Assembly (NCBI GenBank): GCA_964619725.1
Contig: CAZUFC010000072.1
Location: 1-41,545 of the forward strand
Origin: an uncultured bacterium
GTDB taxonomy: Bacteria; CSSED10-310; CAZUFC01
Direction: 5' to 3'
DNA length: 41,545 bases
A program made the position numbers and the translations under genes. Below the pieces are notes generated by a model. The model did no database searches. It was not told where the DNA came from and saw only the letters and a program-made list of their open reading frames with translations. Below are positions 16,681-21,539 of this stretch, one piece after another. Each line of letters opens with the position of its first letter. The first letter of the stretch is position 1.

Positions 16681-16724
16681 GATCGTTCAGTTTCACTCGT
16701 GCATTGCTTGATGGAGGTTTAATA

Positions 16725-18194
16725 ATGATTAGGTTTGCAGAGGAGGACAATTCTTCGAAAAAGAAGGCGGGAATCAAAGTTGTCGGACTCGGGGGAGGCG
16801 GAGGAAACGCTGTTTCCCGCATGCTTGATAAGGATATGTCCGGCGTCGAATTCATAATTTGTAATACGGACCTGCAGGCTCTTAATAATTTTCCCGGGCC
16901 GGTGAAAATCCAGATCGGAAGGGAACTGTGCAACGGTTTGGGCGCGGGCGGAGCCCCGGCCATAGGAGAGCAGGCTGCGCTTGAGCAAATTGAAGAGATA
17001 AAGCAGCAATTGGAAGGCGCAGACATGGTTTTTATAACGGCGGGCATGGGCGGAGGAACCGGAACAGGCTCTGCGCCTGTGGTAGCCGGAGCCGCAAAAG
17101 AGCTTGGAGCGCTGACTGTCGGAGTAGTAACGAAGCCTTTTCAGTTTGAAGGCGGTTACAGGATGGAGCAGGCCGAACAGGGAATAAGAGAGCTCAGCAA
17201 AAGAGCGGATACTCTGCTGGTTATCCAGAATGAAAAACTTCTTGAGACCGCTGCAGAGGATACGACGATACAGGAAGGGTTCTCCATGGCTGACGACGTT
17301 CTGTACAAAGCCGTCAGGGGCATATCCGACCTTATTACCATTCCCGGGTACATCAACCTGGATTTCGCTGACGTCAAACGAATAATGGCGGAAATGGGAA
17401 TGACCCTCATGGGTACCGCGGAAGCCGAAGGAAAAGAGCGGGCGATCCAGGCCGTCAAAGAAGCCATCGAATGCCCGTTGCTGGAAGACCTGTCCATTGA
17501 AGGAGCCAGGGGCATACTGATTAATATTACCGGAGGCCCTGATATGACCCTTAAAGAAATTAATGACGCCTCCACCTATATCTTTGAAGCCTCCGACAGG
17601 GAAGCCAACATCATTTGGGGTTACGTCGTCTCTCCGGAATACGAGGGAAAAATTAAAATTACCGTTATAGCCACAGGGTTGAGTACTTCCGGTTTCAAAA
17701 CTTCTGAATCGCTGAACATCAAAAAAGAGGAACTTCCTCCACCTGAAGAAGAGGAAGATGAGCAGGAACCCGCATTGGTTACGACCGCTGCCGGCAATGA
17801 CGGAAGACCTGATGAAATGCCGGATGTTGAAACGCCCCAACCCGTTCCCACCCCTGTTTCTGACGAGTCCGAAGAGACCGAATACCATGATAATGAAGAA
17901 ACCTCCGAGGATAACATCGATACCCTGGAAGAACAGGAAATGCCGGCTTCGACAAAATCACAGGAAAAAACCGATAATTATCAGAAGGAAGCTTACGAAC
18001 CTTCCCCGGCTATTAATCCGGACCTTCCTATCGCTTTAAGATGGAAAAGCATCGAACCCTACCAGAAAAAATCTCTCTCATTAAAATCAGTCAGCCAGGA
18101 CCAGATGTTCACCAACCTCTATTTAAATAATCGAAAACCCTACTCGCCGATAATGTGCCGTCTTAACAAACAAGAAGCGGCCGTTAATGGTTGA
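16725..18194 (+). CDS. ftsZ: Cell division protein FtsZ with long acidic linker
   Basis: ATG at 16725 after [31 protein letters not shown] (tubulin signature), PFQFEG, INLDFAD, ITVIATG. Confidence 0.98.
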
Positions 18195-18254: not shown

Positions 18255-18499
18255 GCCCGTATGGGTTTACAGGGGCTTTGACCCCAATTTCTTCAATTGC
18301 TTAATCATTCATCCATCTCCATGAAACTCCATCCAGGCAGCAGTCGGGATGCGGTCCCGAAAAAGAGTCCGAAACGAGTCAGAAACGGGGTCAGAGCCCT
18401 TCGCAAACTTCGGCCCTTCCCCATCAAAATAGCTGAAGAGGAACTTATGAGTATGGCTCATACGCGGTTGATCCAGGAAAAAGCTGAGTCTTACGAAAT

Positions 18500-19564
18500 T
18501 TAAGACGAAACGCGCATCAGAATTCCAATTCCAAGAACCAGAAGCAGGCACATCGTCAGCGAGGCGGCCGGTATTGGAAGCTCTTCCTGACCGGCAGGAT
18601 AATGAAAACCCATGTCGACCTGATCCGTATCCGGGATTTTGTCCGTACGAGCGGTTAACTCGTTCAGACAAATGGGTTCCGTTTTTTCCTTGATGCATAT
18701 ATTTTCAGATAAGTCGTCTCCCGCATTGATGCACGGACTGTCGAAAAATTGGCCGGCTGCTGAATGGCTCAGGTAATGCCCTCCGTCCGGACCCGACGTG
18801 AACAGCGGAGGTGCATCTATATTGCCAGAACCCTCAAATCCTCTCTGAATATCTGAATAAGTGATTTGAATATCCGAATCGACGTACTCTATCTCACTAG
18901 GCCAATCAGCCCATAGGATCGAATTTCTTATAATCGGAGAACTATATTCCCAGTATGTCGCCCCTCCTTTTACCGCCGAAGTGTTGTGCGACAGAGTACA
19001 ATTCGTTATGGCGGCATTGGAATAATGCCCGTAAATTCCACCTCCGTCGCTTTCAGTCGTTACGTTGTCGATTATCAAACAATTAGTGATGCTCGGAGAA
19101 CTTGACAGAAGACAAATGCCTCCTCCCGCCCTGGCAGCGTTAAACTTAATAATGCAATTTTCGATTGTTGGTGAAGAATTGATGCAGCGGACCCCGCCGC
19201 CGCACGATGGAAATCACGTGCAGGCTCTGCCGTTGATTATAGTAAAGCCGGACAAAATGGACCCCGCGTCTTCACCGAATTCGAATATGAAACCTGAACC
19301 CTGCTCCATACAATCAATCACGCAATTGAGAGGACCATTAAGCGATACGACGTTTACAGCCTTTCCCTGGAAAGAAACGTCAAAATTTCCTGGTCCCGAA
19401 TAAGTCCCGTCTGCAACCAGAATAATATCTCCACCAACCGCATTCTCTATTCCGTCCTGGATCGTTGGGTAATCCAACGGAACATGAATTACTTCCGCAC
19501 GAGCTGATAATCCGCCGATCATCAACAAAAGCAGAGCAGTAAGTGACCGGTTATAATTAAGCAC
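18500..19564 (-). CDS. Secreted right-handed beta-helix (pectin-lyase-like) protein with C-terminal IPTL-CTERM-like anchor and one in-frame TGA at codon 117 (recoded or pseudogene)
   Basis: GTG at 19564 with AGGAG upstream. Signal peptide ...GLSARA/EVIHVPLDYPTIQ. ILVADGTYSG, repeated GGG(I/V)x...SSPTIxNCxIxxN units, DSPCINAG, DMGFHY, IPAASLTMCLLLVLGIGILMR. Track ORFs 19214..19627 and 18500..19078 share a frame and join through TGA 19216-19214 (NGRACT*FPSCGGGVRCINSSPTIENC). Confidence 0.8.
19182..19216 (-). promoter_or_regulatory. Candidate bacterial SECIS element downstream of the in-frame UGA
   Basis: UGA UUUCCAUC GUGCGGCGG CGGGGU CCGCUGCAU forms a 9-bp stem with a G-rich loop starting 18 nt after UGA. 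An alternative register gives a 7-bp stem with a GGU loop at +21. Confidence 0.4.
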
Positions 19565-19812
19565 TCCCTTTCTCCTTTTTAAGAATTTAAACAAATGTAG
19601 AAATAAATTCATAACTCTTGCCGTCAATGCTTCGCTAATAAACCGAAAAGACCTGTTAATAACTTCTGACTTGCATCAAACCTGTCCTCTCCATACATCA
19701 ACTCCGCTGTTTCTTTGATACTGATTTAATCATTCAGATTCAATTTTTTAAAATTTTCAGAGCTGTCTACAGATTTGAGCTTGAAAAAATTGCATCCCTG
19801 GACTTTGCTTTT

Positions 19813-19841: not shown

Positions 19842-19877
19842 TTGCGAAGGAGGTCCGCGTTAGCCGCGTACAATATT

Positions 19878-21539
19878 ATGAGCAGGAGGCGCAGTAAATC
19901 GTTTTTTGTTGAAGAGGGGGCATCAAAATCCTGGGGACTGCCGGTTAAGGCGGCTTTGATTTACCCGAACCATCGTTACGTGGGTTTATCTAATTTGGGA
20001 TTCCAGTGCGTTTATGAACTTTTTAATTCACGGACAGATACGGTGTGTGAGAGTTTTTTTCTTCCTGAGGGTAAAACCAGCAATGCCTTGTCGAGGACCG
20101 AGAAACCTTTGAGATCGCAGGAATCCGGACATTTACTAAGTGAATTCGATTTGGCTGCTTTCACGATTTCATTTGAAAACGATCTTCCCAATGTGCTCAA
20201 GATACTGGAATTGTGCCGCATTCCTCTATTCAAGGAAGAACGAAATGAATTTCATCCGATTGTCTTAGCGGGAGGAATGGTTCCCACAGCTAATCCTGAA
20301 CCTTTAACGGACTTCATTGATCTTTTTGCGCTCGGCGAGGCGGAAAATCTTGTCGACCCCATCGCTGATGCGGTATATGACTTGAAAGATGCAGGAGAAG
20401 ACAGACGCACGCTCATTGAAAGGCTGAGCGAAATCCCCGGTATATACAATCCAGACTTCTTTGACATTCAATATGATGTTTCGGGAAAAATCAGCGCAAT
20501 CGAACGACTGACAGACAAAAATCCTCCGGGATATTCATTTGTTGAAGAAATTGATCGTTTCGTCCCTAAAACGGTAATTCATGATTCTGGAACTGAATTT
20601 TCAAACATGCGACTCGTAGAAGTCGGACGCGGTTGTCCGAGAGGATGTCGCTTCTGTATGGTCAGCAAAGTCTACGGGAAAGCCAGATTTCGTTCAAAAG
20701 AAGTTTTGCTGAATACAGTAAAATCTGTTTATCCACAGAATTCAGTTATAGGACTGGTTGCTGCTTCACTGGGGGATTATCCCGATCTGTCCGCCTTATG
20801 CCGGGGGCTTCTCTCCTCCGGTTATTTTTTCTCTCTTTCATCTTTAAGAATCGACAGATTGACTGAAAATTTCGTGAAAATGATCCTGGAAAGCGGACAG
20901 AAAACGGTGACATTAGCTCCGGAAACTGGAAGCGAGAAACTACGTTATCAGATCGGAAAAAATTTGCCTGATGAGAAGCTGATGGAAGCTGTCAAATTAT
21001 TCGGAAAATATAAAATTCCTCGCATAAAGCTGTACTTTTTAATCGGTTTGCCGGACGAAACGAATGAGGACGTCAAATCGATCATTCTGCTGGTAAAGCG
21101 TATTATTCATGTTTTGAAAACGGAGTCACGAAACCAGGCTGTTCCGACGCGTTTGCATCTAAGCGTGAATTCATTTGTTCCAAAACCCTGGACGGCCTTT
21201 GAGCGCGAACCGGTAAAAGAACCGGGCGAACTCAAGAAAAAACTTAATTATCTGAAAAGAGAAGCGGCTTCGATAAGAAATGTAAAGTTAACTCATGACC
21301 TTCCGAAATGGTCAGTTATTCAAGCGCTGTTGTCATTAGGCGACCGCAGGGTCGGCAGATTGCTTTATGAAGTGCATCAATTAAAGGGCAACTGGGCTCA
21401 ATGTTTGAAGCAAATCAACATAAGCCTTCCTTTTTACGCACACAGGCGCAAAGATGCAGATGAGATACTTCCCTGGAATCATTTGCGTATTCAAGATCAT
21501 ACAATCCCCCTTTCTGACGGGATATCCCCAAAGCTATAA
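19878..21539 (+). CDS. Radical SAM protein, TIGR03960-like family with B12-binding-like N-terminal region
   Basis: YPNHRYVGLSNLG, FTISFE, ANPEPL, EVGRGCPRGCRFC (CxxxCxxC), SSLRID, TLAPETGSEKLR, KLYFLIGLP, FVPKPWTAF, LPW. Start placed at ATG 19878 because TTG 19842 abuts the -10 box. Confidence 0.88.
   Translation: MSRRRSKSFFVEEGASKSWGLPVKAALIYPNHRYVGLSNLGFQCVYELFNSRTDTVCESFFLPEGKTSNALSRTEKPLRSQESGHLLSEFDLAAFTISFENDLPNVLKILELCRIPLFKEERNEFHPIVLAGGMVPTANPEPLTDFIDLFALGEAENLVDPIADAVYDLKDAGEDRRTLIERLSEIPGIYNPDFFDIQYDVSGKISAIERLTDKNPPGYSFVEEIDRFVPKTVIHDSGTEFSNMRLVEVGRGCPRGCRFCMVSKVYGKARFRSKEVLLNTVKSVYPQNSVIGLVAASLGDYPDLSALCRGLLSSGYFFSLSSLRIDRLTENFVKMILESGQKTVTLAPETGSEKLRYQIGKNLPDEKLMEAVKLFGKYKIPRIKLYFLIGLPDETNEDVKSIILLVKRIIHVLKTESRNQAVPTRLHLSVNSFVPKPWTAFEREPVKEPGELKKKLNYLKREAASIRNVKLTHDLPKWSVIQALLSLGDRRVGRLLYEVHQLKGNWAQCLKQINISLPFYAHRRKDADEILPWNHLRIQDHTIPLSDGISPKL

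Follow-up and report, generated by a model that had tools for sequence, protein, structure and literature searches.

A gene for a predicted exported beta-helix protein contains a single in-frame TGA that is probably a selenocysteine (Sec, U) codon followed by a SECIS element. It lies on contig C72, analysed here as one stretch of 41,545 nucleotides (the window), in a metagenome-assembled genome of 9.17 Mb with 344 contigs, 90.9% completeness and 6.5% contamination. We assign a probability of about 0.87 to the reading that the TGA codes for Sec and that the gene belongs, as a divergent member, to a widespread and so far uncatalogued family of beta-helix selenoproteins that are exported.

The proposed mechanism is as follows. 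The hairpin formed by the GGGVRC codons, 12 nt downstream of the UGA, would act as a bacterial SECIS and bring in SelB with Sec-tRNA(UCA), so that Sec would be inserted instead of termination. The product would be exported via its N-terminal signal peptide and held by its C-terminal hydrophobic anchor. A loop inserted between the first rungs would then show Sec beside cysteines, in the arrangement C-x-U-x-x-x-C in the window protein and U-P-x-C in most relatives.

The gene and its in-frame TGA

With TGA read as X, the minus-strand frame from 19564 to 18500 translates into 354 residues, the only internal stop being X117 (Table 1). Open reading frame calling with translation table 11 splits the gene into 19214..19627 and 18500..19078, both on the minus strand. 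The beta-helix repeat runs on through the 45 codons bridging the two fragments (FPSCGGGVRCINSSPTIENC...), and database homologues cover both fragments in alignment. The repeats in the beta-helix domain are PMP-like, GGGxxC..SSPxIxNC. The TGA is placed in the loop R-A-C-T-U-F-P-S-C-GGGVRC.

Table 1. Features of the candidate selenoprotein gene (positions in the window)
Feature	Position	Strand	Basis
Gene, 354 codons and TAA stop	18500..19564	-	Translation with TGA read as X; homologues aligned across both fragments
Candidate Shine-Dalgarno-like AGGAGA, 7 nt before the GTG start 19564-19562	19571..19576	-	Sequence
Predicted Sec-type signal peptide, residues 1-23, MLNYNRSLTALLLLMIGGLSARA	19496..19564	-	Sequence
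In-frame TGA, proposed U117; loop R-A-C-T-U-F-P-S-C, located between the first rungs of the beta-helix	19214..19216	-	
SECIS-like hairpin with an 18-nt core, GGCGGCGGGGTCCGCTGC, at 19201-19184, encoding GGGVRC	19182..19205	-	Fold and conservation
Right-handed parallel beta-helix domain, residues 25-240	18845..19492	-	AF2, Foldseek, PF13229 in relatives
C-terminal hydrophobic helix, residues 334-352	18509..18565	-	Model; LPIP before, R-V-S-S after

The signal peptide is supported by hydrophobic N-termini aligned in 18 relatives and by a helix at residues 4-17 of the structural model. The C-terminal helix of the same model looks like a membrane anchor or a sorting signal. It resembles PEP-CTERM (P-x-P, a hydrophobic stretch, basic residues) by eye only, and no PEP-CTERM model of NCBIfam matched the window protein at E<=1 or its closest paralogue at E<=0.1. 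The C-terminus of the paralogue consists of M-P-E-P, a hydrophobic stretch and GRKLKNKP. The neighbours of the window gene are ftsZ and a radical SAM gene. The best named match of FtsZ, under a name that begins "candidate division CSSED1", is 60% identical, too remote for a phylum to be assigned.

TGA terminates 10 of the 21 long open reading frames listed in the window, and thus genome-wide reassignment of this codon is excluded. An earlier note, made from the sequence alone, had described one frame with a single TGA, bridging codons that keep the repeat, an intact signal peptide and C-terminal anchor in an otherwise undamaged frame, a Cys-flanked loop, and TGA as an ordinary stop elsewhere. 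The translation, the homologue alignment, the model and the stop codon counts bear out each of these points.

The region 18450-19650 is spanned without differences by a re-assembled contig of X1, the probable source run. The TGA is seen, base for base, in this re-assembly only, the comparison being one of contigs. The contigs of run X2 end at 19198 and restart at 19288, so that the TGA is not bridged, and runs X3 and X4 have no cover there.

The paralogue and other relatives in the same genome

A search of the genome with the window protein gave 255 matches, nearly all of them stop-free. The closest paralogue (C240:6090-7130; 47% identity, 162/354 aligned residues) contains one TGA. Read through, it yields GFTIINGKCIGSG-U-QVRA-GGGVRC, to be compared with GFTIINGRACT-U-FPSC-GGGVRC in the window protein, the TGA being exactly four codons before GGGVRC in both genes. 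The sequence GGCGGCGGGGTCCGCTGC is the longest identical run of the pair (18 nt; the next is 11 nt), and the same codon is used at 70 of the 160 identical degenerate residues. This 18-mer occurs twice in the 9.17-Mb genome, in the window gene and in the paralogue.

Two of the 110 N-terminal modules of the genome that align over the loop have the TGA, and the other modules have a shorter loop. One more paralogue, C2:52561, contains an in-frame TGA that is not followed by the 18-mer. The non-Sec PMP-repeat/beta-helix surface proteins (PF13229, PF02415; about 108 N-terminal modules in the genome) are similar to the Sec forms in the N-terminal module and in the repeats, with 40-50% identity, and they too have signal peptides and C-terminal sorting domains. 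However, their loop has 4-6 residues, no Sec, mostly no Cys and no 18-mer, whereas in the Sec forms the U loop is inserted at this place.

No close orthologues were found in 40 relatives of the genome, where the best non-self matches are 45-49% identical and stop-free; nor was a close Sec form found in the same-phylum genomes among them.

The hairpin downstream of the TGA

The minimum-energy hairpin has a 9-bp stem, the loop CGGGGU, an energy of -14.8 kcal/mol and a gap of 17 nt between the UGA and the loop. Its 18-nt core starts exactly 12 nt after the TGA in both the window gene and the paralogue. The consensus criteria for bacterial SECIS elements are a loop of 3-9 nt, a stem of 4-16 bp and G in the first two loop positions, with a spacing of 16-37 nt and a minimum free energy <= -7.5 (PMC13188914, section 5 and legend to Fig. 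2). All of these values hold for the window hairpin.

On the other hand, the energy is ordinary for the composition. Compared with dinucleotide shuffles it has z from -0.94 to -1.0, and an equally good fold is reached by 35-38 of 200 shuffles. With z of about -1, the hairpin energy was dropped as evidence. Since the energy alone is no better than chance, it is conservation only that makes the hairpin significant. The GC-rich stem-loop proposed in the earlier note thus does fold, with 9 bp and a G-rich loop, but is not unusually stable.

Relatives in other genomes and metagenomes

The first scan of genome contigs used the pattern TG-N13-18-mer. It gave 36 matches in 35 loci, and 21 matches (20 loci) have a beta-helix context. 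All 21 have TGA, a typical product being VDTTTVISGFTIRNGHAEGQ-U-PWCS-GGGVRC-LNSSP. The loci in context come from records titled Candidatus Eisenbacteria, Krumholzibacteriota, Fermentibacteria, Effluviviaceae, or simply "bacterium". The remaining 15 matches are from GC-rich genomes and have no beta-helix context.

As this pattern selects for the hairpin itself, a codon-free rescan was made with the back-translated peptide [U/C]PWCxGGGVRC, leaving every synonymous site free. In genomes it found 13 loci, 12 of them in context, all 12 with TGA and the exact 18-mer. In metagenomes it found 31 loci, 30 of them in context, all 30 with TGA and 29 with the exact 18-mer. Two candidates, L094 in the genomes and L102 in the metagenomes, were rejected as chance matches. 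Pooled, the codon-free scans give TGA in 42/42 relatives and an identical 18-mer, that is, identity at all six codons, in 41/42, the sole exception (L112) having a single change. Outside the hairpin, conservation of third positions is only 0.46-0.54 at residues that are equally conserved. The set used for third positions was partly chosen by the 18-mer, and therefore the 42 codon-free relatives are the fair sample.

The looser pattern GxUPWCxGGG matched 75 loci. Fifteen of them are in context, namely 12 known and three new ones. Two further rows passed the loose filter and were discarded, having no repeat context when the sequence was examined. The three new loci (L143, L162 and L176) have another hairpin, GGCGGA-GGUC-UCCGCC, in the corresponding place. 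This variant encodes GGGLR[L/F], and thus the conserved Cys of the family has been given up in these loci.

In an alignment of 25 sequences, five base pairs (positions 16-20 with 27-31, numbered from the U of the UGA) are formed in 124 of 125 cells, for both types of hairpin. No base pairs changed on both sides were seen in either register. Hence it is not covariation that argues for an RNA element here, but the fact that synonymous sites are frozen and that two alternative hairpins both have a GGU apex. The earlier note had suggested that homologues be checked for this codon and for a conserved, covarying hairpin. In the paralogue and in every relative of the codon-free scans the TGA occupies the corresponding position of the loop, and the hairpin sequence is kept, but compensatory covariation and a Cys form were not found. 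Trp, Arg or Gly, which in that note would have spoken against Sec, occur at the codon in no relative with the Sec loop motif.

The commonest context of U is UPWCS, and UPYCS, UPFCS, UPSCD, UPRCD, UPPCN, UPDCD and UGSCS are also observed. Other contexts are C-U-GGVP, UPDKD, UFPSC of the window protein and CIGSG-U-QVRA of the paralogue. The common form is U-P-x-C, from which the window loop U-F-P-S-C departs; in the paralogue no Cys follows U. The window protein is only 24-32% identical to the Sec forms other than the paralogue. Full-length relatives are about 420-500 residues long, begin with a hydrophobic N-terminus and have U at about position 112-139. Two types of C-terminus occur, a conserved tail ...W-x-x-[IL]-K-x-x-[YH]-R and a domain matching Por_Secre_tail (T9SS type A sorting) and FlgD_ig.

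A gene for a Pectate_lyase_4 protein adjoins the gene divergently in three loci (L060, L092 and L105). A gene for an LPG_synthase_TM protein was found downstream in L083 and L092.

Search for cysteine forms and origin of the Sec forms

The main text of deep-Sep (PMC12013277) states that almost all selenoproteins have Cys homologues. In the present family, TGC or TGT was found at the Sec codon in 0/42 in-context matches of the codon-free scans, CxxC.GGG was found in 0/234 database homologues, and no Cys version of the loop pattern is in context among the at least 119 matches listed. A profile search with the 19-sequence alignment retrieved mostly long multi-repeat proteins and no Cys form.

A quick tree was built from 74 N-terminal modules, leaving out the columns of the loop. 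The rows were 19 Sec forms, the best 35 of 207 coverage-filtered database homologues and the first 20 of 82 modules from the same genome. In the free tree the Sec forms fall into three groups, which suggested transfer of a Sec cassette into unrelated backbones. However, the tree with all 19 Sec forms together is better by 23.6 lnL, with p-AU 0.77. As the AU test did not reject one Sec clade, the idea of cassette transfer was dropped. The data thus allow all 19 Sec forms to share one origin.

Fold and protein family

The AF2 model, made with the 19-row alignment, is a right-handed beta-helix with regular three-strand rungs at residues 25-240 and pLDDT above 90. The pLDDT falls to 79 in the block 111-120, which holds the Sec loop. 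Residues 242-336 are disordered in the model and are followed by the terminal helix 334-352. Foldseek retrieved generic beta-helix enzymes (pectin methylesterases, lyases and epimerases), the best being 1xg2_A with E 6.8e-5. The TM-scores are low, 0.15-0.39 when normalised by query length, partly because of the disordered residues 242-336. The beta-helix scaffold is otherwise known for carbohydrate-active enzymes and adhesins.

The Pfam matches of the window protein are NosD, with 19.5 bits (cut-off 23.6), and Chlam_PMP, with 17.2 bits (cut-off 20.6), both below the cut-offs, and there are no others. PF13229 matches the paralogue and five orthologues with 28.5-79.1 bits (cut-off 25.9). The selenoprotein models of NCBIfam release 20 match neither the window protein nor the paralogue nor these orthologues.

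NosD (PF05048, TIGR04247), a protein of nitrous-oxide reductase maturation, is likewise a periplasmic beta-helix protein with weak profile similarity to the window protein: against the NosD profile the window protein has E 7e-4, and the orthologue L099 reaches up to 28.8 bits. However, the whole-protein score is 23, compared with a cut-off of 300 bits for TIGR04247, and no nos gene was seen next to the window gene.

Selenocysteine machinery

The source genome encodes selA, selB, two copies of selD and tRNA-Sec, which the earlier note had listed as selA, selB, selC and selD among the genes to be sought. The tRNA-Sec scores 78.6 bits and is called tRNA-SeC(tca) by ARAGORN. One selD is on contig C59. 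The other, on C204, has an in-frame TGA itself, in SHGAG-U-ACK, and two hairpins were obtained on folding its SECIS region. The FdhA-like gene of the genome has no TGA and hence offers no second SECIS for comparison. The GC content and tetranucleotide composition of C72 and of the machinery contigs are typical of the bin.

The gene selA was found in 5/5 carrier genomes tested. In the phylum of genome G043, 10 of 31 genomes contain TGA with the 18-mer, and all 10 have selA. However, selA is over the cut-off in 28 of these 31 genomes, including 18 of the 21 non-carriers. Because selA is nearly universal in this phylum, its co-occurrence with the gene cannot discriminate.

Comparison with known selenoproteins

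The prototype of bacterial genes with an intragenic SECIS recognised by SelB is fdhF of E. coli. As in the window gene, in genes of this type the UGA is followed by a GC-rich stem-loop within the coding region, with G early in the loop, 17-20 nt downstream. The GGU(C) apex of the hairpins described here may resemble the fdhF loop. The differences are that in the present family a single 18-nt SECIS sequence stays frozen in proteins that are only 24-32% identical to the window protein, and that no Cys homologues were found.

The exported thioredoxin-like UxxC selenoproteins, namely the thiol:disulfide interchange protein and the DsbA-like, DsbG-like and GOS_C/NF045500 families (PMC13188914, Table 1), also have a motif of the U-x-x-C type and, like the window protein, are predicted to act outside the cytoplasm. 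They are set apart by the fold, which is a beta-helix here, and by the NCBIfam models. Table 1 of the same 2026 review lists 119 prokaryotic selenoprotein families, and there is no beta-helix, PMP or pectate-lyase-like entry among them. The words "beta-helix" and "parallel" are absent from the main texts of BSepDB (PMC13326102) and deep-Sep, to which this comparison applies, the family list of BSepDB being in its supplement. A literature search found no paper on a beta-helix selenoprotein.

Discussion

The earlier note had proposed that the gene may encode an exported, anchored selenoprotein of a fold not known among selenoproteins. The machinery, the conserved TGA and the conserved hairpin all favour this reading.

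One alternative is programmed stop-codon read-through or regulated termination, with a standard amino acid inserted via a near-cognate tRNA, or with a controlled ratio of truncated and full-length products, and in either case without selenium. Conservation of the TGA and the hairpin shows recoding and not which residue goes in, and this alternative agrees with the finding of neither Cys forms nor covariation. However, the hairpin fits the geometry of bacterial SECIS elements and has a G-rich apex, the source genome has the Sec machinery, and selA is present in every carrier tested. Besides, U is found in U-x-x-C, a redox-related selenoprotein motif (PMC13188914, section 7), and the truncated product of 116 residues would consist of the signal peptide and an incomplete start of the beta-helix. 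We consider such read-through improbable.

Another possibility is that there are two genes, one for a small exported protein ending at the TGA and one for a second protein starting from TTG 19078. Gene calling with table 11 yields exactly these two frames. However, the protein sequence of the 45 codons between them is conserved, with the repeat unbroken, the downstream frame has no signal peptide, and the homologues are single proteins, which makes this arrangement very doubtful.

Least credible of all is a broken gene or an error: the gene would belong to a very large family of paralogues and be decaying, its TGA having arisen by nonsense mutation, during sequencing or in assembly. Although paralogues are many (110 N-terminal modules align over the loop), C2:52561 has an in-frame TGA with no 18-mer, and the TGA is bridged by the X1 contig only, the TGA and the 18-mer are at the same position in a 47%-identical paralogue, TGA is present in all 42 relatives from several phyla, the frame is otherwise undamaged, and the X1 re-assembly agrees base for base.

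Returning to the selenoprotein reading, the recoding mechanism is standard. The unusual features are the fold, the extracellular location, the frozen SECIS and the fact that no Cys forms were found. As judged from the loop sequence, its likeliest role, with roughly one chance in three, would be that of a selenol-thiol site on the cell surface, either redox-active or binding a metal or metalloid. A broader reading is tentative as well. The Sec forms may constitute an old, Sec-only subfamily of cell-surface beta-helix proteins without a Cys form, with the SECIS held to one 18-nt sequence that fixes GGGVRC across several candidate phyla, and with the U-x-x-C loop serving as an extracellular selenium-based catalytic or metal/metalloid-handling site.

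If this broader reading is true, these proteins would be the first selenoenzymes with a right-handed beta-helix fold, and in some relatives a type IX sorting domain would serve for export. Confirmation of Sec would add to the selenoproteome an extracellular fold other than thioredoxin. As gene callers cut such genes in two, a whole exported family would be mis-annotated in the source genome and in metagenome-assembled genomes titled Eisenbacteria, Krumholzibacteriota and Fermentibacteria. A family for which no Cys counterpart was found is a rare case, and it matters to search methods built on Sec/Cys pairs. It would also show how an RNA signal can dictate the sequence of a protein in nature: the main hairpin imposes GGGVRC, and the variant hairpin imposes GGGLR[L/F] with loss of the conserved Cys. 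The invariant 18-mer is a ready probe for more members of the family.

Further in-frame TGA codons

The genome carrying the window encodes a very large beta-helix/PMP-like family: the window's probable selenoprotein of 354 aa has 255 matches genome-wide, including giant multi-module open reading frames of approximately 3,000-4,300 aa on contigs C53, C94 and C170. A paralogue on contig C2, outside the window, contains a single in-frame TGA codon (52561-52563) in the corresponding loop of a rung further along the helix, with the context DNYT*MYGGGIVS. This codon has neither a neighboring cysteine nor the 18-nt SECIS-like hairpin core downstream; it may mark a recoding site of another kind, or be either a genuine nonsense mutation or an error. 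One in-frame TGA was also found in a beta-helix match from a same-phylum relative (G005:C33:9840-10397, minus strand).

Three contigs of relatives (L074, L100, L107) each carry a tandem pair of selenocysteine-containing beta-helix genes, every one with its own TGA codon and its own hairpin core. The loops differ between the tandem genes, e.g. UPWCS versus UGSCS in L100 and L107, where U is the proposed selenocysteine.

One of the two selD genes of the window's genome (contig C204) itself encodes a selenoprotein, SHGAG-U-ACKIG, with the TGA codon at 698-700. This UGA is followed by two successive hairpins with loops UGA and GUU.

Gene neighborhoods

The probable selenoprotein gene of the window is located between ftsZ (16704-18194), where the dcw cluster ends, and the gene of a radical SAM protein with the N-terminal domain Radical_SAM_N2. 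In relatives, pectate lyase-like proteins of approximately 380-400 aa are encoded next to the selenoprotein genes at three loci, and membrane proteins at two.

Neighbors of the selenoprotein genes
Protein	Domains	Locus	Position	Strand	Location
Radical SAM, 565 aa	PF19864, PF04055	window	19842-21539	+	divergent
Pectate_lyase_4	PF00544	L060	3569-4714	-	divergent
Pectate_lyase_4	PF00544	L092	3095-4303	+	divergent
Pectate_lyase_4	PF00544	L105	2210-3331	-	divergent
LPG_synthase_TM, membrane	PF03706	L083	4936-5976	-	just downstream
LPG_synthase_TM, membrane	PF03706	L092	515-1642	-	just downstream

The PF00544 and PF03706 neighbors may form a conserved neighborhood, pointing to a role in cell-envelope or polysaccharide work.
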